A stretch of 50,872 nt of DNA from contig DASUMP010000043.1 of the NCBI GenBank assembly GCA_036277635.1, positions 1-50,872 on the forward strand, written 5' to 3'. Below, piece by piece: positions 7,634 to 34,918 of the stretch. The notes beneath the pieces were generated by a model. That model was not told where the DNA came from and ran no database searches. It saw only the letters and a program-made list of their open reading frames with translations. Position numbers and translations under genes: made by a program. Source of the DNA: Acidimicrobiia bacterium (GTDB lineage Bacteria > Actinomycetota > Acidimicrobiia > IMCC26256 > PALSA-610). Numbering within the stretch: the first letter of the stretch is position 1; every line of letters starts with the position of its first letter.

Positions 7634-8287
7634 TCACCCTTCGGACTCGCCGCCCTCGTCGGTGGCGGCGCCGCCCTCGGCGGCCTCGCCTTCCGCGGCC
7701 TCGCCCTCGGCGGCCTCGCCCTCCGCGGCCATCGCGCGCGGGATCGAGACCGCGGCGACGACCTCGTCGGCCTCTTGCAGCACGGTGACGCCAGCGGGGA
7801 TCGCGAGGTCGCGGACGTGCACCTGGTCGCCGACCTCGAGCGCGCTGATGTCGTGCTCGATCACGTTGGGCAGGTCGCCCGGCTTCGCTTCGATCGACAG
7901 CGTGAAGATCTGCTGCTCGAGCATGCCGCCCATGTTCACGCCCTCGGCGGTGCCGACGAGCGAGAGCGGGATCTCGGCGGTGACCGTCTCGTCGGCGCTG
8001 ATGCGGATGAAGTCGACGTGCACCACGTCGCCGCGGATCGGGTCGCGCTGGATCTGGCGGGCGAGCGTGAGCTGGCCGGCACCGTCGACCTGCAGCGTGA
8101 TCAGCGTGTTCGCGCCCGCCGCCCCCGACAAGATGTGCTGGAGGTCTCGCGCGTCGACCGCGACGGCCACCGGGTCGTCGCCGCGCCCGTAGACCACGGC
8201 CGGCACCCGCCCGGCCCGGCGCAGCCGCCCGGCGGGACGGCTCCCCCGCTCGGGGCGGAGCTCGGCGTTGAGTACTGCGTCTGACAT
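7634..8287 (-). CDS. rplY: 50S ribosomal protein L25 / general stress protein Ctc, with an acidic (AEGEA)n C-terminal tail
   Basis: MSDAVLNAELRPERGSRPAGRLRRAGRVPAVVYGRG... is a typical L25/Ctc N-terminus. ATG at 8287; an in-frame GTG at 8296 is an alternative start. Confidence 0.9.
   Translation of the reverse strand: MSDAVLNAELRPERGSRPAGRLRRAGRVPAVVYGRGDDPVAVAVDARDLQHILSGAAGANTLITLQVDGAGQLTLARQIQRDPIRGDVVHVDFIRISADETVTAEIPLSLVGTAEGVNMGGMLEQQIFTLSIEAKPGDLPNVIEHDISALEVGDQVHVRDLAIPAGVTVLQEADEVVAAVSIPRAMAAEGEAAEGEAAEGEAAEGGAATDEGGESEG
7676..7730. repeat. About 3.7 tandem copies of a 15-nt unit (CTCGGCGGCCTCGCC) inside the rplY 3' end
   Basis: Read directly: ctcggcggcctcgcc / ttccgcggcctcgcc / ctcggcggcctcgcc / ctccgcggcc. 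On the minus strand this encodes AEGEAAEGEAAEGEAAEG. Confidence 0.85.
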
Positions 8288-23520: not shown

Positions 23521-25225
<1,705 letters not shown>

Positions 25226-25259: not shown

Positions 25260-26723
25260 ATGACCACCGACACCGACCGGGAGCGCACGGCGGCCGTCAC
25301 GATCCCGGATGGGCTGGTCGCGGTGGTCAAGCGCGACTGCCCCACGTGCACGACGGTTGCTCCCGTGCTCGCGCAGCTCGCCAGCGCGGGTGCGCTCACC
25401 GTGTTCACCCAGGACGACCCCACGTTCCCCGAGGGCACGAACCCGGTCGACGACCGCAACCTCGCGGTGTCGTTCGCGCTCGACATCGACACCGTCCCCA
25501 CGCTCGTGCGCATCGAGGGCGGCGCGGAGACCGCCCGCACCGTCGGCTGGCTGCGCAGCGCGTGGGAAGAGATCACAGGCGTCGCCGGTCTCGGTCCCGA
25601 CCTGCCCGAGTACCGGCCGGGCTGCGGGTCGCTCACCCAGGACCCCGTCGTCGTCGACCGGCTCCTGGTCGAGCGCACGGTGCCGTTGCTCCGGGCGCGT
25701 CGGGTCGCGCTCGGCGCCGACGAAGACGTGCACGAGGCGATGGACGCACGCGGCTGGACCGACGGCCTCCCCGTCGTGCCGCCCACACCCGAGCGAGTCG
25801 CGCGCATGCTCGCGGGAACGACGCGCGCTCCCGACGACATCGTGGCGGTCGTGCCGCCCGATCTCGTCGAGTGCACGGTCGAGAAGGTCGCGATCAACGC
25901 AGTGATGGCCGGCTGCCGCCCGGAGTACCTGCCGGTGGTGCTCGCGGCGATCGAAGCGGCGTGCACCGACGAGTTCAACATGCACGGCTTGCTCGCGACC
26001 ACGTGGTTCGCGGGTCCAGTGGTGATCGTGAACGGCCCCGTCACGCGCGCGATCGGCATGAACTCCGGGCTGAATGCGCTCGGTCAGGGGAATCGCGCCA
26101 ACGCGAGCATCGGGCGCGCGCTCCAGCTCACGGTGCGCAACGTCGGCGGCGGCCGTCCCGGCGAAGTCGACCGCGCCACGCTCGGCAACCCGGGCAAGTA
26201 CACGTTCTGCTTCGCCGAACGTGAGCACGACTCGCCGTGGGAGCCGTTGCACGTGGCGCGCGGCTTCGCGCCCGACCGGTCGACCGTGACCCTGTTCGCG
26301 GGCGAAGGCGTGCGCGGCGTGGTCGACCAGCTCTCGCGCGAGCCCGAATCGCTCACGCGCTCGTTCGCCGCGTGCCTCGCCACAGTCGCGCACCCGAAGC
26401 TGCCGATCGTCTGGGACGCGTTCTTGGTGGTGTCGCCCGAGCACGCCCGCGTGTTCCGCGACGCCGGGTGGTCGCGTCAACGCCTGACCGACGAGATCAA
26501 CGCCATCCTGCAGCTCGACGGCGAGCAGTTCGTCCAGGGCGCGGGCGGCATCGCCGAAGGGATGCCCGAGGCGTTCCGCGCCACGACCCTGCCGAAGTTC
26601 CGCACCGGCGGCCTGCAGATCGTCCACGCCGGCGGCACCGCGGGTCTGTTCTCGGGCATCATCGGCGGGTGGGCCAGCGGTTCGGTCGGCAGCGAGATCG
26701 TGACCCGAGAGGTGACCAGATGA
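25260..26723 (+). CDS. Thioredoxin-fold (CPTC) domain fused to a ~370-aa domain of unknown function
   Basis: 487 aa. N-terminus: LVAVVKRDCPTCTTVAPVLAQL...DIDTVPTLVRIEGG (thioredoxin-like). Remainder (GWTDGLPVVPPTPERV, NAVMAGCRPEYLPVVLAAIEA, GQGNRANASIGRALQL) is not recognised by me. The stop overlaps the next ATG (ATGA). Confidence 0.7.
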   Translation: MTTDTDRERTAAVTIPDGLVAVVKRDCPTCTTVAPVLAQLASAGALTVFTQDDPTFPEGTNPVDDRNLAVSFALDIDTVPTLVRIEGGAETARTVGWLRSAWEEITGVAGLGPDLPEYRPGCGSLTQDPVVVDRLLVERTVPLLRARRVALGADEDVHEAMDARGWTDGLPVVPPTPERVARMLAGTTRAPDDIVAVVPPDLVECTVEKVAINAVMAGCRPEYLPVVLAAIEAACTDEFNMHGLLATTWFAGPVVIVNGPVTRAIGMNSGLNALGQGNRANASIGRALQLTVRNVGGGRPGEVDRATLGNPGKYTFCFAEREHDSPWEPLHVARGFAPDRSTVTLFAGEGVRGVVDQLSREPESLTRSFAACLATVAHPKLPIVWDAFLVVSPEHARVFRDAGWSRQRLTDEINAILQLDGEQFVQGAGGIAEGMPEAFRATTLPKFRTGGLQIVHAGGTAGLFSGIIGGWASGSVGSEIVTREVTR

Positions 26724-27229
26724 GCGAACTCCTCGACCCCACGTCGGAGCGGTCGGCGGCACTGCGCGAGCGGGCGCCTCGACCCGAGTCGCTCGCCGGT
26801 GTGCGCGTCGGGCTGCTCGACATCTCGAAGCCGCGCGGGGCGGTGTTCCTCGACCAGCTGCAGTCGCTGCTCGAAGCGCGCGGCATGACGGTCGAGCGGT
26901 TCTCGAAGCCGACGTTCACGAAGCCCGCGCCGCTCGACCTGCGCCACGAGATCGCGACGAAGTGCGATGTCGTGATCGAAGCCCTCGCCGATTGAGGGTC
27001 GTGCACGTCGTGCAGTGTGCACGACTCCGTGAACCTCGAAGCCGCCGGCATCCCCACCGTGTTCGTCGCGTCGAGCGAGTTCGTCGACGCGGCCGACGCG
27101 CAGTCGCGCTCGCTCGGCGCCGACCCGGCGCGGGTGTTCGTCGCGCACCCGATCCAGGACCGCACCGACGCCGAGCTGGTGGCGCTCGCCGACGCGGCGC
27201 TCGACGAGCTCCTCGCGGCGCTGCGCTGA
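26720..27229 (+). CDS. UGSC-motif selenoprotein (in-frame TGA at 26993-26995 read as selenocysteine); 169 codons
   Basis: Track ORFs 26237..26995 and 27017..27229 are in the same frame. Read-through gives MSELLDPTSE...CDVVIEALAD-U-GSCTSCSVHDSVNLEAAGIPTVFVASSEF.... A SECIS-like hairpin starts 3 nt after the TGA. The gene is tightly coupled to both neighbours. Confidence 0.75.
26998..27025 (+). promoter_or_regulatory. SECIS-like stem-loop immediately downstream of the in-frame UGA
   Basis: GTCGTGCAC (26998-27006) pairs perfectly with GTGCACGAC (27017-27025). The 10-nt loop is GUCGUGCAGU. The stem is extendable by G:U and G:C (26996-27027). Confidence 0.65.
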
Positions 27230-27232
27230 CCT

Positions 27233-27937
27233 GTGCTGTACCTCCACGAGGTCCACACCGTCGCCGGGCGGTCGGAGGACGCGTTCGCGGCCGTCTTCCG
27301 CGATCGGTGGCTGCCGGAGCTCGCGCGCGATGTCGACACGCGACTCCTGTACTTCCTGCGTCAGACGTTCGCGACCGGACGCGCCTACCACGTCGTCACG
27401 ATCACCGCGGTGCGCGACGGCGCCGCGTACGAGCGACTCGCTCGACGGGTGCAGCGGGGCGACCTGCGAGCCCTCGCCGCCGACACCGACCGTCTGCGGC
27501 ACGAGGTCGCGGGCAAGCTGCTCCTCCCCGTCGAGTGGTCACCGTGCGTGGAGCACGATCTCGCGTCGGTCCCGACCGACGCCGCCGAGCACGACGCGAC
27601 GTTGTTCCTCGAGGACAGCGCGTGGCCGCACGAAGACAAGCTCGACGACTACGTCGACGCCGCGCGCACGCACTACGCGCCGAGTCTGGAACAGCGCGAC
27701 GAGCGCTCGCTGCTCACGCTCGAGGCCGTGTGGCAGGCCGCACTCGGCGCACCGCGCCGTCGCGAGGTGGTGCTGTGGCAGCGCGTGGATCATCCCGAAC
27801 GGCTGCCGGCGCTGTTCGCGCGCGACCTGCCCGAGGAAGTGCGGGCGCCGGGCACGTGGATGCACGACGCGCTGGCCGTGCGCGACGACTGGGAGAGCAA
27901 GCTGTTGCGCACGGCGACCTGGTCGCCGCTGCACTAG
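27233..27937 (+). CDS. NIPSNAP-like / dimeric alpha-beta-barrel two-repeat protein
   Basis: 234 aa. MLYLHEVHTVAGRSEDAFAAVFRDRWLPELA...YHVVTITAVRDGAAYERL, with a second similar half. GTG start 4 nt after the selenoprotein stop. The family call is from general resemblance only. Confidence 0.5.
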   Translation: MLYLHEVHTVAGRSEDAFAAVFRDRWLPELARDVDTRLLYFLRQTFATGRAYHVVTITAVRDGAAYERLARRVQRGDLRALAADTDRLRHEVAGKLLLPVEWSPCVEHDLASVPTDAAEHDATLFLEDSAWPHEDKLDDYVDAARTHYAPSLEQRDERSLLTLEAVWQAALGAPRRREVVLWQRVDHPERLPALFARDLPEEVRAPGTWMHDALAVRDDWESKLLRTATWSPLH

Positions 27938-27959: not shown

Positions 27960-29108
27960 TCAGTCCCAGGCGGTGCCGCCGATCTTGCCGCCGAGCTCGG
28001 GGCACTCGCCGGCGAACACGCCCCACGAGCACTCGAAGCCGGGCACGACCCACGCGTGCACCATCCAGATGTCTTCGAGCGGGTTCTTCTCGCCGCCGAG
28101 CGCCTTGCACTCCTCTTCGGTGGTGTTCTCGCCGCCGACGACGAGGCCACCCTGCAAGCACAGACCGCCGTTCGCGTTGTGCTGGTGCCACCGGTCGTTC
28201 GGACCCGCGAAGCCCTCGGGCGCGCCACCCGGGTGGTACACGAGGTAGCTGAGACCGACGATCTTGGAGTCGGGATCGGTGCCGTCGTAGAGCAGCTCGG
28301 ACGGCGCCGCCGGATCGAAGACCGGGACGCGCGAGATGTTCGTGTAGTGCGCGCCGATGCACGGCACGTAGACGGTCGACTTGTGGTAGCCGCCGGCCTC
28401 GGCGTCGGCCACGGTGGGGAACTCTTCGATCACTTCGCGAGCCGCCGCCATCTCGTCCATGAGCTGGAGGCGTTCGGCAGTCGTCAGGTTCTCTTGCACG
28501 ACCATGCCGCGGATCTCGCCGTGGCCGTCGCCCGTCTGACCCGGTGACGCGGGGTCGCCCGACTGCTCGCACGGGGAGTCACCCGTGGCGGTCGCGGCGA
28601 TGATGTCGCCGTGGTCGCCGCCGTCGATCAACCCGGTCTCCGGATCGACGCCACCGTGCTCGGCGTGGTCGTCGGCCATGCCGTCGTCGCCGCCGGCCCC
28701 GTCGTCACCGTGCGCGTGGCCGTGACCGTCGTCGGCGCCCGCCGCGACGTCGCCGCTCGTCCCCGAACCTTCCGCCAGTCCGGTGTCACTCAACACCGCG
28801 GCGCTCGCGGCGATGAGCGCGACGGCCGCGAGCGGCGCGCCGACCTGGAGCAGGCGACGAGCGGGCGTCGCGCCATCGGCGCTCGTCGCGTAGAGGGACG
28901 CGCCGAAGAACATGAGGAGCACACCGAGGATCGCGACGACGATCCCACCGAAGAACACCGCGTGCGCGAGCGAGTTCAGCTCGAGCACACCCTCGGTCGC
29001 CGCGAGATCCGCGTCGTCGGCGTGTCGGAGCGCGTCGGCGAGCATGCCCACGACCATCGCCACCGCGCCGACGCCGACCATCGACGTGCCGACCTTGCGA
29101 ACGTCCAT
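27960..29108 (-). CDS. Membrane-anchored extracytoplasmic protein with a His/Asp-rich linker and a conserved His/Trp/Cys-rich C-terminal domain (paralog of 34912..35772)
   Basis: 382 aa from ATG 29108 (AGGGGGG upstream). Three N-terminal hydrophobic segments. Linker DDGHGHAHGDDGAGGDDGMADDHAEHGG. C-domain motifs IGAHYT, GPNDRWHQH, IWMVHAWVVPGFEC. Upstream part of track ORF 27960..30563 rejected. Confidence 0.7.
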   Translation of the reverse strand: MDVRKVGTSMVGVGAVAMVVGMLADALRHADDADLAATEGVLELNSLAHAVFFGGIVVAILGVLLMFFGASLYATSADGATPARRLLQVGAPLAAVALIAASAAVLSDTGLAEGSGTSGDVAAGADDGHGHAHGDDGAGGDDGMADDHAEHGGVDPETGLIDGGDHGDIIAATATGDSPCEQSGDPASPGQTGDGHGEIRGMVVQENLTTAERLQLMDEMAAAREVIEEFPTVADAEAGGYHKSTVYVPCIGAHYTNISRVPVFDPAAPSELLYDGTDPDSKIVGLSYLVYHPGGAPEGFAGPNDRWHQHNANGGLCLQGGLVVGGENTTEEECKALGGEKNPLEDIWMVHAWVVPGFECSWGVFAGECPELGGKIGGTAWD

Positions 29109-29179
29109 CGAGTCCCCCCTCGGAATCCGTTCCGACGCCGGGGCGCGCTCGCGCGACCGCCGACCGCCGTTGGATCCCG

Positions 29180-30403
29180 TCATCCTACGCCGCCCGCCGG
29201 CGGCGCCTCCGCGCGGCCGTCTCGAGCTGCGCCGGCGACGCAGGCCGCGGCCCGGCTCGCGATGCCGGAGGTCCGGCGCCACTCGCGGAGGCGGTGCTGG
29301 TCGTGGTCGCCGGTCAGGTAGGCGAACGACAGGCCCGTGGCCGGGTCGGCGAAGGCGATCTGGCCACCGGCACCGTCGTGGCCGAACGCGGCCGGCGAGA
29401 CGGTGTGCCCGAAGCCCCGGCGCGAGGCGCGGCCGTCGGCGCCCGCGACGATCAGTGCGCGGGTGCGGTTCGCCGGCGTCCCGACGTAATCCGGGAGCGA
29501 GGTACGCACCCGGCTCGTGATGTCGGCGAGCACGTCGGCGCCGAACACACCGTCCGGATCGTGCAGCAGCGCTTGGTAGAAGCGCGCCAGATCGGCCGCG
29601 TCCGACGCGGCGCCCGCACCGGGCACGCCCAACGCGCGCGTCTGCGGGTCGTTGAACGCGACGATCGATTCGGCGGTGACCTCCGTCGGCGGCATCGACG
29701 GAACTCCGAGCACGCGAGCGAGCTCGTCGCGGTCCATCGGCGCTCCGACCGGCACGACCGGTTCGATGTCGGCCTGCTGCTCGAGCGGGACGCCGAGCTG
29801 GAGCCGGGTCAGCCCGAGCGGTTCGAGCACGCGCGCCCGGACCGCGTCGCGGAAGTCGGCACCGTCGATGCGCTCGAGCAGCTCGGCGAGCACCCAGTGC
29901 GCCGACGACGCGTGGTACAGGTAGCCGGTGCCGGGCTCGGAGGTCAGCCGCCAGCGCGCGAACGCGTCGAGACGAGCGGACCGGTCGAACCACTGGGGCG
30001 GGCCGAGCGGCGCCATCGGGAACCCCGACGTGTGGAGCATCACCTGCTCGACGGTCACGACGTCCTTGCCGTTCGTCGCGAACTCGGGGATGTACTCCAC
30101 GACGCGTGCGTCGGGATCCAGCGCACCCTCGCCGATGAGCTGACACAACGCGCTCGCGACGACGGGCTTGGTCGCCGAGAAGATCATGAAGCGCGCGTCG
30201 GCCGGTGCCGCACCGAGCGTGACCTGCAGGAGCACCTCGCCGTGGCGAGCGAGCGCGAGCTGGCACGACGTGAGGGGCCCCTCGTCGATGTCGCGCTGCG
30301 CGCGCTCGACGAGCGCGGCGACCTTCGCGACGTCGAGGCCGGCGGCGACGGGATCTTCGAGGAAGGTGAGATCGGCGAGATCCCGTGACGGCGTGTCCGA
30401 CAT
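29180..30403 (-). CDS. Serine hydrolase, beta-lactamase / PBP4-type esterase family
   Basis: 407 aa from MSDTPSRDL.... Contains the SxxK motif (FMIFSATKPVVA) and YHASSAHW. Confidence 0.8.
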   Translation of the reverse strand: MSDTPSRDLADLTFLEDPVAAGLDVAKVAALVERAQRDIDEGPLTSCQLALARHGEVLLQVTLGAAPADARFMIFSATKPVVASALCQLIGEGALDPDARVVEYIPEFATNGKDVVTVEQVMLHTSGFPMAPLGPPQWFDRSARLDAFARWRLTSEPGTGYLYHASSAHWVLAELLERIDGADFRDAVRARVLEPLGLTRLQLGVPLEQQADIEPVVPVGAPMDRDELARVLGVPSMPPTEVTAESIVAFNDPQTRALGVPGAGAASDAADLARFYQALLHDPDGVFGADVLADITSRVRTSLPDYVGTPANRTRALIVAGADGRASRRGFGHTVSPAAFGHDGAGGQIAFADPATGLSFAYLTGDHDQHRLREWRRTSGIASRAAACVAGAARDGRAEAPPAGGVG

Positions 30404-30459: not shown

Positions 30460-31818
30460 GTGGCGGAGTCTCCCGGCGTCTGGGCACCGGAGCGCCGCGC
30501 ACTGACCACGGGCCTCGTGCTCACGATCACGCTCGTGGCGTTCGAGGCCCTCGCGGTCTCCACGGTGATGCCCGAGGTGCAAGCCGACCTGCGCGGACTC
30601 GCCTGGTACGGCTGGGTCTTCTCGGGCTTCTTCCTCGGGCAGCTGCTCGGGATCGTGATGGCCGGTCACCAAGCCGATCGTCGCGGCCCGGCGGCGCCGT
30701 TCGCACTCGGGCTCGCGATGTTCGTGGTCGGGCTCCTCATCGGCGGCTTCGCCGTCTCGATGCCGATGCTGGTGCTGGGTCGCGTCGTGCAGGGGCTCGG
30801 CGCGGGCGCGATCCCCGCGACGGCGTACGTCGCCGTCGGACGCGCGTACGCGCCCGAGCTCCAACCCCGGGTGTTCGCGGTGTTCTCGACCGCGTGGGTC
30901 GTCCCGGGGCTCATCGGACCGGCGCTCAGCGGTGCGGTCGCCGAGGCGTTCTCGTGGCGCTGGGTGTTCCTCGGCCTGCTCCCGCTCGTCGCGGTCGCGG
31001 GCGTGATGGCGCTGCCGGGGCTCCGCGCGCTCGCGCCCGCCGAGCGGAGCAGCGAGGCGCCGAGGTACGGCACCGCGCTCGCCGTGACCGCGGGTGCCGG
31101 GCTCGTGTTGGGGGGCATCGGGAGCGGCAACGTGGCGCTCGCGGTCGCCCTTGCGGTCCCCGGCGGCGTGCTCGCGACCCGGGCGTTCATGCGTCTGGTG
31201 CCGGTCGGCACGCTGCGCGCCGCGCCGGGGCTGCCCGCCGCGGTCGCCGTGCGCGGGATCCTCACGTTCGCGTTCTTCGGCGCCGACGCGTACGTGTCCC
31301 TCGCGTTCGTCGACGTCCGCGGCACACGGCCGTGGGTCGCCGGACTCGCGCTCACCGCCGCGACGCTCGCGTGGACTTCGGGCGCGTGGGTGCAGGAGCG
31401 ACGCGTTCGCGTCGCCGGGCCACGACGCCTGGTGCGCGAGGGCTTCGCGTTGCTCGTGGTCGGGATCGCGGGCCTCGGCTCGGTGCTGTTCGAGAGCGTG
31501 CCGATCCCCGTCGCGATCGCGGTGTGGGGAATCGGCGGACTCGCGATGGGACTCGCCTACGCGCCGCTGTCACTCACCGTGCTCGCGTCCGCCGCACGCG
31601 GTGAGGAGGGCGCAGCCGCCGCGTCACTCCAGCTCTCCGACGTGCTCGGCGTGGCGCTCGGCACCGGAGCCACTGGCGCCGCGGTCGCGGTCGCCGACGC
31701 CCTCGATCGGGATCCTCGCGCCGCGCTCCTGGTGGCGTTCCCGGTCATGGCCGCCGTCGCCGTGTTCGGCGCGCTCGTCGCTCGTCGGCTCCCCGAACAT
31801 CTCCCCGACGCGCGCTGA
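30460..31818 (+). CDS. MFS transporter
   Basis: 12-14 TM pattern. VMAGHQADRRGPAAPF is the MFS loop 2-3 motif. Start set to GTG 30460, because the track start 30385 would overlap the divergent beta-lactamase start. Confidence 0.8.
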   Translation: MAESPGVWAPERRALTTGLVLTITLVAFEALAVSTVMPEVQADLRGLAWYGWVFSGFFLGQLLGIVMAGHQADRRGPAAPFALGLAMFVVGLLIGGFAVSMPMLVLGRVVQGLGAGAIPATAYVAVGRAYAPELQPRVFAVFSTAWVVPGLIGPALSGAVAEAFSWRWVFLGLLPLVAVAGVMALPGLRALAPAERSSEAPRYGTALAVTAGAGLVLGGIGSGNVALAVALAVPGGVLATRAFMRLVPVGTLRAAPGLPAAVAVRGILTFAFFGADAYVSLAFVDVRGTRPWVAGLALTAATLAWTSGAWVQERRVRVAGPRRLVREGFALLVVGIAGLGSVLFESVPIPVAIAVWGIGGLAMGLAYAPLSLTVLASAARGEEGAAAASLQLSDVLGVALGTGATGAAVAVADALDRDPRAALLVAFPVMAAVAVFGALVARRLPEHLPDAR

Positions 31819-31880
31819 GCGACTCGGCGGTCATCTGGGCCGGACGGCCCAACGCAGCCCGCGAGCATCCGAGCGCGTCG

Positions 31881-32234
31881 GTGCGCGTGGGACAATCGCT
31901 GGCGATGCCGCGATCGTCCACCAAGGCCGCGCGCCCCGACGCGAAGGAACAACCTCCGACCCGGCTGCTCGCCGTCGCCGCAGCGTCGGTCGTCATCGGC
32001 GCGGTCCTCGTCGTCCTCGGCGAGTTCGCGTTGCACGTCGTGGGTTACGTCCTCGCGTCGTTCCAGACCATCGGGCTCGTCGCGGCGTACACACGCATCG
32101 ACAACAGCCGGCGCAGCTCCGCGCACTACGTCCCGCTCGCGCACGCCGGACGCATCGTCTCCGCGATCACGATCGCCGGGATCATGGTCGCCGGCGTCCA
32201 CGTATGGATGATCGCCACGGAGCTGGCCGGGTGA
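31881..32234 (+). CDS. Small 3-TM membrane protein, translationally coupled to the vWA gene
   Basis: 117 aa (109 aa if ATG 31905 is used). Hydrophobic segments LLAVAAASVVIGAVLVVLG, VVGYVLASFQTIGLVAAY, IVSAITIAGIMVAGVHVWMIA. Its stop TGA overlaps the next ATG (TGATG at 32232-32236). Confidence 0.55.
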   Translation: MRVGQSLAMPRSSTKAARPDAKEQPPTRLLAVAAASVVIGAVLVVLGEFALHVVGYVLASFQTIGLVAAYTRIDNSRRSSAHYVPLAHAGRIVSAITIAGIMVAGVHVWMIATELAG

Positions 32235-34918
32235 TGCACCGCACGACGATCCGCACGCGCGCGATCGGCGTCGTCGCGCTGCTGTGCGCCGCCCTCGCGC
32301 TGTTCACCTCGGTGCCCGGTCGTCCGGCGGCCGCGCAGACCGACGCCGGCGCCGAGGCGACGCTCACGGAGATCGCCAGCTGCCTGAAGGACACGAACCG
32401 CCTGCTCGTGATGCTGCTCGTCGACGAGTCGGGCAGCCTGCGCACCACGGATCCCGCCAACGAACGCGTGACGGCCGCGAGGCTCGCGTTGCAGGCGTTC
32501 ACCGCGCTCACCCAGGATCCCCCGGCGGGCGGCAACGCGCCGAGCGTCGAGGTGCTCGTCGCCGGCTTCTCGAGCTCGTTCAACGAGCTGGTGCCGTGGA
32601 CGCCGCTCAACGCGCGTTCTGTGCGCCAAGTCGAGCTCGCGGTCGACGGCTTCGCCACGCGCAACTCGGGGATCGACACCGACTTCCCCACCGCGCTCAT
32701 CGGCGCCCAGCGCCGGATGGCCGAACGCACGCAGGAGATCACCGACGGCGGCGTCGCCGCGCCGTGCAAAGCGATCCTCTTGTTCACCGACGGTCGCTAC
32801 GACATCCAGACCGGCAACACCCCGGCCCGCCGGGCGGCGCCCGACAGCAAGGAGTACGCACCGAACCTCTCGGTGCTCGACCCCCGCAACGACCAAGCCA
32901 TCGAAGAAGCCGGGCGGACGTTCCTCTGCCAAGAGGACGGACTCGCCGACCGGCTGCGCGCCGACCGCGCCACGCTCGTCACGCTCGCACTCTCGGCCCA
33001 GCTCACCGTCGCCGATCAAGCGTTCCTGCGCGCGCTCGCCACCGGCGAGTACGAAGGGATCACGTGCGGGAGTCGGCGCGGCGCGCGCTTCGGCGCCTAC
33101 CTCGCGAGCGCCACGCTCGAACAGCTCGCCCCGCTGTTCAACCAGGTCGTGAGCACGATCGGAGGTGGCTCGCGCCTCCCCGGCCAGACCCGGCCCGGCG
33201 AATGCGCGACGTCGCCGTGCATCCGCGGTACCCGTTCGTTCACGCTCGACGAGGTGATGAACCGCTTCACCGCCACGCTGCGCACGGGTGCCGACGCCAT
33301 CCGCGCCGAGCTGACCGCGCCGAGCGAGGCGTCGGCGCTGATCCTCGAACCGGGGGTCGACGGCGAAGAGGAGTACGGCGGCACGACGATCGCGTGGACC
33401 TGGGTCGGCGAGGACACCGTGACCGTTCGATCGTCGCTCCCCGCCGACGACTTGGAGTGGGTCGGCGACTGGAAGATCGAGTTCGTCGACGTCACCGGTC
33501 TCGCCGATGACGCGCGCCCCGATGCCTTCATCGACGTGTTCGGGGCGTGGACGCCGCAGCTCGCGAACCGTGTCCGCTTCGTGCGGGGCGAGGACACGCG
33601 GCTCGCCGTGGAAGTGGTCGACACGGCCGGCGAGCGCGTGTCGCGCCGCCGGCTCGACGACGCCGGGTACCGCATCGCCGGGAGCGTCGTCGACCGCGGG
33701 ACGGGGACCACCACGGCGCTCGACCTGAGCGACACCGACGAGTCGGGGCTCATCACGACCCGCTTCGCGACGCCGGCCGACCTCGCGAGCGAGCAGCTCG
33801 ACGTGCGCCTGCGGCTCACGATCGGTACGAGCGACCCCGACGTCCGGCTCGCCGCGACCGAGCGCTACACGCTCGACGTCGAGCCCCCCGACATCTACCC
33901 GAGCCTCGTGACGGTCGAGCTCGAGCTGTCGTCGGTACGCGGACTCGAGGCGGCCGAAGGCGTGATCGAGATCGTGGGCGGCCGCGACCGAGCCGGATGC
34001 GTGTGGATCGGCGTACCCGTGTTCGACAGCTTCCCGGCGAGCGCCGAAGGATTCGCCACCACGATCGCGCCGAACTCGACCGAGGCGCGCTGCGTCGAGG
34101 TGACGTCGCGCGCCACCGTGGAGTTCGAGGTGCGCGTCGAGCCGCGCGCGATCGGCGAGGGGACCGCCGCGGGGACGATCCCGGTGTTCCTCAGCGCCGT
34201 CGACGAGGGCGACGCGCCGGAGGTGCTCGAGGTGTCGTTGCCCATCACCTTCGACATGTCGCCGCCGATCAACGAGGCGCGCCGACTCGGGCTCTTCGCC
34301 GTGATCCTGTTGGCGGGGATCCTCGGCCCGATCGTCGCCGTCGCGCTGCTGAACGTGGCGCTCGCTCGGTTCGAGCCCGCAGCCGACGCGCTCGTCGCCC
34401 GCGTGCCCGTGCAGGTCGAACGGAGCTTCTCGCGGATCATGCGGGTCTTCGCCCAGGCCTCGGACCACCCGGCCGGTCGCGCGATCCGACGCCTCGGACC
34501 CGGCGGCGAGACCGACGAGCTCACGCTCTCACTCGCCGAGTTCGAACGTCTACGCACGGGAGCAGAACGCTCGCGCACGGTCGAGTGGGACGACCTCCTG
34601 TTCCAAGCCGAAGCGCCGCGCAATCCGTTCGGCACCCCGTTCGGCACGGTGCTCTCGCGCTCACCGATCGTCGCCGGCAACGTCGCGACGCCGATCAACC
34701 GCGACGCGCGGATCCCACTCGCGCTGCCGGGCACGTGGGTGTTCGTGCTGCGCGACCTCGGGGCCGGCGACGCCGAGAGCTGGATCGCCGGTGATCTGGT
34801 GATCGTCCTCGCCGAGAGCGACGCCGAGGCTCAGCTCCCCCGCGTCCTCGCCGCGGTCGACGCCCAGCTCCCGACGCTGGCGAACGACCTGGCCGACGAG
34901 GTCCGCGACGGTCAGTGA
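32234..34918 (+). CDS. Secreted/single-pass membrane von Willebrand factor A (vWA) domain protein, 894 aa
   Basis: Signal peptide MHRTTIRTRAIGVVALLCAALALFTSVPGRPAAAQ. MIDAS motif LLVDESGSL (D-x-S-x-S at 32423-32437). ILLFTDGRYD. TM helix LGLFAVILLAGILGPIVAVALLNVAL near 34290-34365, followed by a ~180-aa cytoplasmic tail. Upstream part of track ORF 31094..34918 rejected. Confidence 0.8.
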   Translation: MHRTTIRTRAIGVVALLCAALALFTSVPGRPAAAQTDAGAEATLTEIASCLKDTNRLLVMLLVDESGSLRTTDPANERVTAARLALQAFTALTQDPPAGGNAPSVEVLVAGFSSSFNELVPWTPLNARSVRQVELAVDGFATRNSGIDTDFPTALIGAQRRMAERTQEITDGGVAAPCKAILLFTDGRYDIQTGNTPARRAAPDSKEYAPNLSVLDPRNDQAIEEAGRTFLCQEDGLADRLRADRATLVTLALSAQLTVADQAFLRALATGEYEGITCGSRRGARFGAYLASATLEQLAPLFNQVVSTIGGGSRLPGQTRPGECATSPCIRGTRSFTLDEVMNRFTATLRTGADAIRAELTAPSEASALILEPGVDGEEEYGGTTIAWTWVGEDTVTVRSSLPADDLEWVGDWKIEFVDVTGLADDARPDAFIDVFGAWTPQLANRVRFVRGEDTRLAVEVVDTAGERVSRRRLDDAGYRIAGSVVDRGTGTTTALDLSDTDESGLITTRFATPADLASEQLDVRLRLTIGTSDPDVRLAATERYTLDVEPPDIYPSLVTVELELSSVRGLEAAEGVIEIVGGRDRAGCVWIGVPVFDSFPASAEGFATTIAPNSTEARCVEVTSRATVEFEVRVEPRAIGEGTAAGTIPVFLSAVDEGDAPEVLEVSLPITFDMSPPINEARRLGLFAVILLAGILGPIVAVALLNVALARFEPAADALVARVPVQVERSFSRIMRVFAQASDHPAGRAIRRLGPGGETDELTLSLAEFERLRTGAERSRTVEWDDLLFQAEAPRNPFGTPFGTVLSRSPIVAGNVATPINRDARIPLALPGTWVFVLRDLGAGDAESWIAGDLVIVLAESDAEAQLPRVLAAVDAQLPTLANDLADEVRDGQ

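Follow-up and report, generated by a model that had tools for sequence, protein, structure and literature searches.

An in-frame UGA, a conserved SECIS-like hairpin and a constant partner gene mark a predicted UGSC-family selenoprotein in an Acidimicrobiia bacterium

Contig DASUMP010000043.1 from the genome assembly of an Acidimicrobiia bacterium (GCA_036277635.1) is 50,872 bp long, and its entire length is the window analysed here. Its forward strand carries, at positions 26720-27229, a UGSC-family gene of 169 codons plus a stop codon that is interrupted by an in-frame TGA at 26993-26995. When the gene is translated through this TGA, a single protein is obtained that begins with MSELL, reaches the TGA after KCDVVIEALAD, continues with GSCTSCSVHD and ends with LLAALR, with only one internal TGA. 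The TGA heads the motif U-G-S-C-T-S-C, in which U would be selenocysteine (Sec). Two of the listed open reading frames (ORFs), at 26237-26995 and 27017-27229, share one frame, and the second, of 70 amino acids (aa), is listed from a GTG at 27017. Translation and ORF list together bear out the initial annotation of this DNA, which had read the two ORFs as one frame of 169 codons passing through the TGA.

The gene is packed tightly between its neighbors. Its ATG at 26720 overlaps the stop codon of an upstream 487-aa ORF in the sequence ATGA, and a GTG at 27233, the start of the next gene, follows four bases past its stop codon; both junctions agree with the close packing that had been described. 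The GC content at third codon positions (GC3) is 0.93 before the TGA and 0.97 after it. The TGA at 26993 is the only same-frame junction on the contig that is not explained as two adjacent genes. The other same-frame TGA junctions considered, at 27227 and at 7636 (minus strand), were rejected as merely adjacent genes that lie in one frame. At the first of these (27227-27235), the stop codon of the UGSC gene (TGA, 27227-27229) and the GTG at 27233 are in frame with one codon between them (R-*-P-V).

The read-through product was searched with U replaced by C. It matches the NCBIfam model NF041046, “UGSC family (seleno)protein”, with 157.5 bits (curated cutoff 125; residues 27-169 against profile positions 2-147 of 147), and the Pfam model PF24696, “UGSC”, with 156.8 bits (cutoff 25; residues 3-168 against profile positions 1-170 of 172). 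Both alignments span the TGA, where the motif reads D-U-G-S-C-T-S-C. The family name given in the initial annotation thus exists, its curated cutoffs are exceeded, and the proposed profile search of the read-through product yields matches across the TGA. Judged by sequence, the product is a member of the UGSC family on the grounds of score, of the TGA-spanning alignment, and of a Sec codon that is kept in orthologs and replaced by cysteine (Cys) in other homologs.

The find itself is not new, as a publication of 2008 already describes the family and both NCBIfam and Pfam contain curated models for it. In the Global Ocean Sampling data, the “UGSC-containing protein” ranks with the most abundant selenoproteins, 255 Sec forms and 21 Cys forms having been counted, with enrichment in non-marine samples (PMC2398784, Zhang & Gladyshev 2008). 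Reviews from 2022 and 2026 treat the UGSC family, with NF041046, as functionally uncharacterised, and no report of a function for it was found in the searchable literature. The gene described here shares with the known family the U-G-S-C motif, a size of ~170 aa, Sec forms that outnumber Cys forms, and a setting in uncultured aquatic and soil Actinomycetota. Nothing essential differs, and the window protein is at most 78% identical to its nearest genome representative.

In selenoprotein B of glycine/sarcosine/betaine reductase (GrdB) and in PrdB, the Sec residue lies in a U-x-x-C-x-x-C arrangement. The initial annotation had drawn the comparison with GrdB, of which the likeness in motif stands and a family link does not. 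The GrdB model TIGR01917 gives a marginal match of 15.4 bits against a cutoff of 602.2 (E = 0.0068), confined to residues 78-120 against profile positions 333-374, which is the Sec region. In addition, Pfam GRDB finds no match in six UGSC members at E <= 10, and no grd/prd operon genes (GrdA/GrdE/PrdA) stand beside the UGSC gene in the window or in the contexts of two further loci (L001 and L082). Membership in GrdB/PrdB was therefore rejected. The feature held in common is the UxxCxxC motif, whereas the UGSC protein has ~170 aa compared to ~430 aa, and the hosts of the UGSC gene appear to be Actinomycetota that are not known for Stickland fermentation.

A protein search yields over 7,000 relatives, and the majority of the best matches are ~92 aa long, span 52% of the query and terminate precisely at ...EALAD. 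Such entries, thousands of them, are gene-caller truncations at the same TGA, just as it had been predicted that automated callers would truncate the gene. An exact database look-up of the 91-aa N-terminal product of the window found no record. The ortholog set used for comparison consists of the best 80 of 537 relatives in species-representative genomes together with one further locus (L001), which makes 81 loci, or 82 sequences including the window. The best 80 loci come almost all from Acidimicrobiia or unclassified Actinomycetota metagenome-assembled genomes (MAGs), at no more than 78% identity to the window. Complete chromosomes with an ortholog include OZ220724.1, NZ_OZ242342.1, NZ_OZ244049.1 and OY759762.1.

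The codon at the Sec position is TGA in 82 of 82 sequences, within the context (I/V)EALAD-TGA-GSC(T/V)(S/T)C. The protein sequence after the TGA is conserved in all 81 loci, at 58-84% identity. Between the window and its closest relatives, the ratio of nonsynonymous to synonymous substitution rates (dN/dS) is 0.23-0.55 downstream of the TGA (60 codons) and 0.28-0.47 upstream of it (85 codons); a value of 1.45 for one relative (L020) was discarded as an indel artefact of the ungapped comparison. No ortholog ends at this position as a separate short protein, an outcome that had been named beforehand as contrary to the claim, and the conserved in-frame C-terminal half is present in 82 of 82 sequences. 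Among full-length database entries, the Sec position is occupied by Cys (P0002, P0003, P0006 and P0007) or by W or R (P0001, P0005 and P0004). In the DNA of other lineages the corresponding codon is TGT (L082 and L083), TGC (L084) or TGG (L085), so that the suggested test of the TGA column does find Cys codons elsewhere in the family.

These comparisons bear on two ways in which the in-frame TGA could be a genuine stop. In a single sequence, such a codon looks like a nonsense mutation, and the gene could then be a decaying pseudogene. The identical TGA in 82 of 82 sequences from different species, the lack of frameshifts, a downstream dN/dS well below 1 and a downstream GC3 of 0.97 refute this reading, leaving it a negligible probability and upholding the earlier argument against decay. 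Alternatively, the locus could encode two short proteins, with translation stopping at the TGA and restarting at the GTG at 27017. This GTG is invariant, the 70-aa ORF is listed from it, and database gene callers report the two halves separately. However, the seven codons that separate TGA from GTG encode a conserved peptide (GSCTSCS) and show third-position wobble, and single-chain Cys homologs and both family models span the junction. Moreover, an AlphaFold2 (AF2) model of a Cys-form homolog is a single compact domain that encloses the junction, at the boundary of strand 3 and helix 3. Two separate proteins are thus very improbable, if slightly less so than decay. Both the pseudogene and the independent gene pair are ruled out because the TGA and the C-terminal half are conserved, dN/dS is low, and full-length homologs exist in Cys form.

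In bacteria, the insertion of Sec at a UGA codon is directed by a selenocysteine insertion sequence (SECIS), a hairpin located in the coding sequence directly downstream of the UGA. The initial annotation had proposed as the SECIS element a perfect 9-bp inverted repeat, 26998-27006/27017-27025, with a 10-nt loop, which is indeed present in the window. For the segment 26993-27030, the folding energy is -20.3 kcal/mol (z = -3.4), a value that 0 of 200 shuffled sequences match, and its minimum free energy (MFE) structure is a 12-bp extension of the 9-bp stem with a bulged U and a loop of 5 nt that contains G. In the wider 61-nt context 26985-27045, the z-score is only -1.4. Furthermore, hairpins with 9-bp stems are unremarkable in this contig of 72% GC, where 13 are found compared to 11.2 +/- 3.4 expected. 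Neither such a hairpin nor a fold that reaches significance only in a narrow segment can carry the claim of a SECIS, which must rest on the orthologs.

Third-position entropy across the 82 sequences is 1.2-1.8 bits upstream of the TGA, at +6 and +9, and beyond +36. From +15 to +33, which corresponds to positions 27007-27025, it falls to 0-0.6 bits, so that this stretch is almost frozen at synonymous sites. One of the frozen codons, AGT for serine, is the same in 82 of 82 sequences, though it is rare in such GC-rich genomes, and the two third positions that do vary there change together (TCG to TCA with CAC to CAT). The stretch coincides with a hairpin that has a 7-bp stem, 27007-27013/27019-27025, and a loop at 27014-27018 reading AGUGU, which is invariant in 81 of 82 sequences.

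The two candidate stems were compared by pairing tests on the 59 distinct sequences of the ortholog set. For the 7-bp stem, 97.1% of the cells pair, and at 27010:27022 the G-C pair of 50 sequences is replaced by A-U in 7, a compensatory change, and by G-U in 2. None of 500 shuffles reaches the observed pairing or covariation, all slid registers collapse, and RNAalifold independently gives the same core. For the 9-bp stem, only 69.5% of the cells pair, the four outer pairs are present in 8-26 sequences, there is no compensatory change, and the stem fails to surpass its shuffled and slid controls. The energy of the 7-bp hairpin is -11.9 kcal/mol in the window, between -10.9 and -12.0 overall and about -12 in the consensus ortholog. 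That of the 9-bp stem is -15.0 kcal/mol in the window and -1.8 in the consensus ortholog.

The same distinction emerges from the bacterial SECIS (bSECIS) consensus of bSECISearch, as summarised in PMC13188914 (Fig. 2A). The consensus asks for a loop of 3-9 nt, and the loop is 5 nt long in the 7-bp hairpin and too long, at 10 nt, in the 9-bp stem. The distance from the UGA to the apical loop should be 16-37 nt; it is 18 nt for the 7-bp hairpin (26996-27013), and it falls short at 11 nt for the 9-bp stem and at 14 nt for the MFE variant. Both stems lie within the permitted 4-16 bp. Both also carry a G in the first two loop positions (N1-G-[G/U]-N-N2), the 7-bp hairpin as A-G-U-G-U and the 9-bp stem with G first, and both are more stable than the limit of -7.5 kcal/mol, at about -12 and at -15.0 in the window, respectively. 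The 7-bp hairpin therefore matches the bacterial consensus in loop pattern, stem, spacing and energy as well as in its placement within the coding sequence. It differs in that its sequence is family-specific and that a competing longer stem is possible in the window.

The longer hairpin, either the 9-bp stem or its 12-bp MFE extension, could still be the working SECIS in this particular organism. It is the local MFE fold with the significant z-score given above, it is more stable in the window than the conserved stem, and its MFE form shows the bulged U and the G-containing 5-nt loop. However, most orthologs cannot form its outer pairs and show no compensation, the synonymous sites of its 5′ arm vary freely, and its loop length and spacing lie outside the bSECIS limits. 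It is consequently an unlikely candidate. From the comparative sequence data, the element directing Sec insertion is most likely the 7-bp hairpin nested within the span of the 9-bp stem. Of the earlier claim for a SECIS-like hairpin, the existence of the 9-bp repeat and its 10-nt loop is upheld, and its standing as a bSECIS is not.

The 5′ arm of the 9-bp stem (26998-27006) competes with that of the 7-bp hairpin for the same 3′ arm (27017-27025), and it is lineage-specific and not conserved. At 26999-27014 the window contains a tandem duplication, TCGTGCA-CG-TCGTGCA, encoding S-C-T-S-C, either copy of which, but not both at once, can act as the 5′ arm for the single 3′ arm. The 9-bp stem forms in the window because S-C-T-S-C is written there with repeated codons (TCGTGCA twice). 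This choice of repeated codons occurs in about one quarter of the orthologs; in the others, the first serine is encoded by AGC or AGT.

At the corresponding site, the older Cys-form lineages (L082 and L084) lack a hairpin, with energies of 0 and -2.7 kcal/mol. Because the hairpin is kept at synonymous sites and lost in old Cys lineages, it appears to be tied to the UGA codon. Two other loci, L083:1229 (TGT) and L085:603 (TGG), are one base away from TGA and retain the identical hairpin (GTCGTGCAGTGTGCACGAC). On account of this single base and the identical hairpin, they look like very recent Sec-to-Cys and Sec-to-Trp conversions, or like read errors on short, low-coverage contigs.

Taken together, the locus at 26720-27229 is interpreted as one 169-residue UGSC selenoprotein, in which the UGA is most likely decoded as Sec by way of the 7-bp hairpin and which is paired with its upstream partner; a probability of roughly 0.88 is assigned to this reading. 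Family models, orthologs and Cys homologs all support the central claim of the initial annotation, namely that a selenoprotein gene with a UGSC motif is split here by an in-frame TGA. Several observations weigh against the reading. None of selA, selB and selD is on the contig, according to the NCBIfam annotation of 30 ORFs, and ARAGORN detects no tRNA-Sec in the window; nor does it detect one in 60 orthologous loci. The covariation of the 7-bp stem comes from one variable pair only, the other six being invariant or showing mismatches only, and in the window the longer stem is thermodynamically favored over the conserved one (-15.0 kcal/mol, or -20.3 for the MFE variant, against -11.9). In the searchable literature, no experimental evidence of selenium incorporation was found for the UGSC family. 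Finally, the redox relay considered below is proposed from domain content and synteny only.

The lack of Sec machinery genes on the contig would also be expected if the UGA were read through with insertion of Cys or another amino acid, either by a Cys-charged tRNA with a UCA anticodon or by near-cognate suppression after loss of the Sec machinery. Natural homologs do function with Cys at this position. On the other hand, the hairpin is maintained at synonymous sites in 82 sequences and lost in old Cys lineages, and the family is overwhelmingly of Sec type in metagenomes (PMC2398784). Complete Sec machinery is present in related Acidimicrobiia as well: for Actinomarinales, an order of Acidimicrobiia, a 2026 preprint reports that every one of 84 complete genomes contains selA, selB, selC and selD. 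Read-through with an amino acid other than Sec is accordingly improbable, even more so than a working role for the longer hairpin. An Rfam search detects no SECIS in the whole window at gathering thresholds or in 26900-27120 at E <= 10, where only two tRNAs and noise were returned. This null result is uninformative because Rfam has no bacterial SECIS model, and the 2026 preprint likewise notes that the Rfam SECIS models leave bacterial elements uncovered.

The gene directly upstream, termed the partner here, occupies 25260-26723 on the forward strand and encodes 487 aa, with a thioredoxin-fold N-terminus carrying a CPTC motif (C27/C30) and a C-terminal domain of ~350 aa. It lies directly upstream of the UGSC gene in 81 of 81 loci. 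The 4-nt overlap seen in the window, as ATGA or GTGA, recurs in 28 of the 76 loci in which the junction could be measured, and most of the other gaps are shorter than 45 nt. The partner has no Pfam or NCBIfam match, and some of its homologs are named “thioredoxin family protein” by NCBI. Among close homologs, mean column identity is 75%, the CPTC motif is invariant, and so are C122, C205, C219, C235 and C317. In the AF2 model of the partner, which has a predicted local distance difference test score (pLDDT) of 75.9, residues 17-110 are confidently modelled as a thioredoxin fold.

The C-terminal domain of the partner (residues ~135-487) belongs to a large family, for which a profile search at E <= 1e-3 gives 6,884 clusters at 50% identity. 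This family is without a Pfam or NCBIfam model, and its motifs include GWTDGLPVVPPT, NAVMAGC, GNRANATIGRA and PGKYTFC. Many of its members are stand-alone proteins of ~350 aa, such as P0437. A fold search with the domain found no significant relative in the PDB; the best match, a class I fumarate hydratase, was rejected as not meaningful (template modelling score, TM, ~0.2; E ~2e-3). A sequence search of the PDB with the UGSC and partner proteins returned noise only.

Single-chain fusions provide a further connection between the two genes. P0474 (542 aa) and P0496 (556 aa) consist of an N-terminal UGSC domain followed by the C-terminal domain of the partner, in an order that is the reverse of the genes in the window. 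These fusions keep only the first Cys of the motif, at the Sec position, as CGSCTSW and CGASSSW, respectively. They may be the “UGSC/Unknown_1” fusion mentioned in 2008 (PMC2398784). Strict synteny and fusion together suggest that the UGSC protein and its partner act together.

The fold of the UGSC protein was examined with an AF2 model of a natural Cys-form homolog (P0003; pLDDT 89.6, predicted TM score 0.84). The model is a (beta-alpha)5 three-layer sandwich with five parallel strands, and Cys95, the equivalent of Sec, is located at the end of strand 3 and the N-terminus of helix 3. Its fold matches in the PDB are generic, namely flavodoxin-, lumazine-synthase-, TIR- and CheY-like folds with TM scores of 0.4-0.5, and no thioredoxin is found among the top 50. 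The UGSC protein thus models as flavodoxin-like and not as a thioredoxin fold, at odds with the remark made in 2008 that it likely has a thioredoxin-like fold (PMC2398784). With selenoproteins that do have the thioredoxin fold (thioredoxin-, peroxiredoxin- and SelW-like), it shares a U-x-x-C at a helix N-terminus. It differs from them in modelling as a flavodoxin-like (beta-alpha)5 protein itself, and the CxxC thioredoxin domain is here found on the partner.

A mechanism consistent with these features can be outlined. The UGSC gene would be co-transcribed, and probably translationally coupled, with the gene for the 487-aa partner. By the standard bacterial route, SelB carrying Sec-tRNA(Sec) would bind the mRNA hairpin just downstream of the UGA, here presumably 27007-27013/27019-27025 with its AGUGU loop, 18 nt past the UGA, and would deliver Sec to the ribosome. 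The Sec residue, positioned at a helix N-terminus, could then serve as the reactive nucleophile of a U-x-x-C redox center on a small flavodoxin-like subunit. This subunit may dock onto the catalytic domain of the partner, whose CPTC thioredoxin domain could in turn re-reduce the Sec center, the two forming a selenol/thiol redox pair. Whether the UGSC protein and its adjacent, sometimes fused, partner constitute an undescribed two-component selenoenzyme is regarded as an even bet.

The downstream gene (27233-27937, forward strand) encodes 234 aa and is weakly NIPSNAP-like, with a Pfam NIPSNAP match of E = 0.0014 that is below the gathering score. It adjoins the UGSC gene in only four of the 81 loci, which are the closest relatives (L004, L005, L006 and L014), and for this reason it is placed outside the conserved module. 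Immediately upstream of the partner-UGSC pair, at 23606-25225 on the forward strand, is serC, which encodes an actinobacterial-type phosphoserine transaminase (TIGR01366, 565 bits). Its adjacency is probably coincidental, since this arrangement is not seen in L001 or L082.

The 30 ORFs annotated with NCBIfam form an ordinary actinobacterial housekeeping set. It includes yabN/mazG, mfd, pth, rplY, prs, glmU, rsmA, metG, ychF, moaA, galU, plsY and SepX, as well as a fetAB-like ATP-binding cassette (ABC) pair, an Rrf2 regulator, a WS/DGAT gene, serC, an esterase, a major facilitator superfamily (MFS) transporter, two phosphoenolpyruvate (PEP)-utilising proteins and a HAD protein. The only tRNAs in the window, by ARAGORN and Rfam, are tRNA-Gln and tRNA-Ala. 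The methionyl-tRNA synthetase and the UGSC pair group the contig with Acidimicrobiia/Actinomycetota MAGs. Two long frames have no NCBIfam match: an open frame of 1,276 codons at 31088-34918 on the forward strand (GC3 0.86), which partly overlaps the ORF of the MFS transporter, and a frame of 406 codons at 27960-29180 on the minus strand.

For annotation, the consequence is one 169-residue selenoprotein gene in place of fragments of 91 and 70 aa. For biology, one more member contributes little, since UGSC is a curated family that was already described in 2008. Three points are new with respect to the searchable literature, namely the SECIS delimited through orthologs, the obligate partner with its thioredoxin domain and its unmodelled, catalytic-looking domain, and the reassignment to a predicted flavodoxin-like fold. 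They may help in finding the function of a family that is abundant in non-marine waters. If the two-component reading is true, a selenoprotein family that ranks among the most abundant in Actinomycetota of fresh water and soil would supply the redox subunit of an undescribed enzyme instead of a stand-alone thioredoxin-like oxidoreductase.

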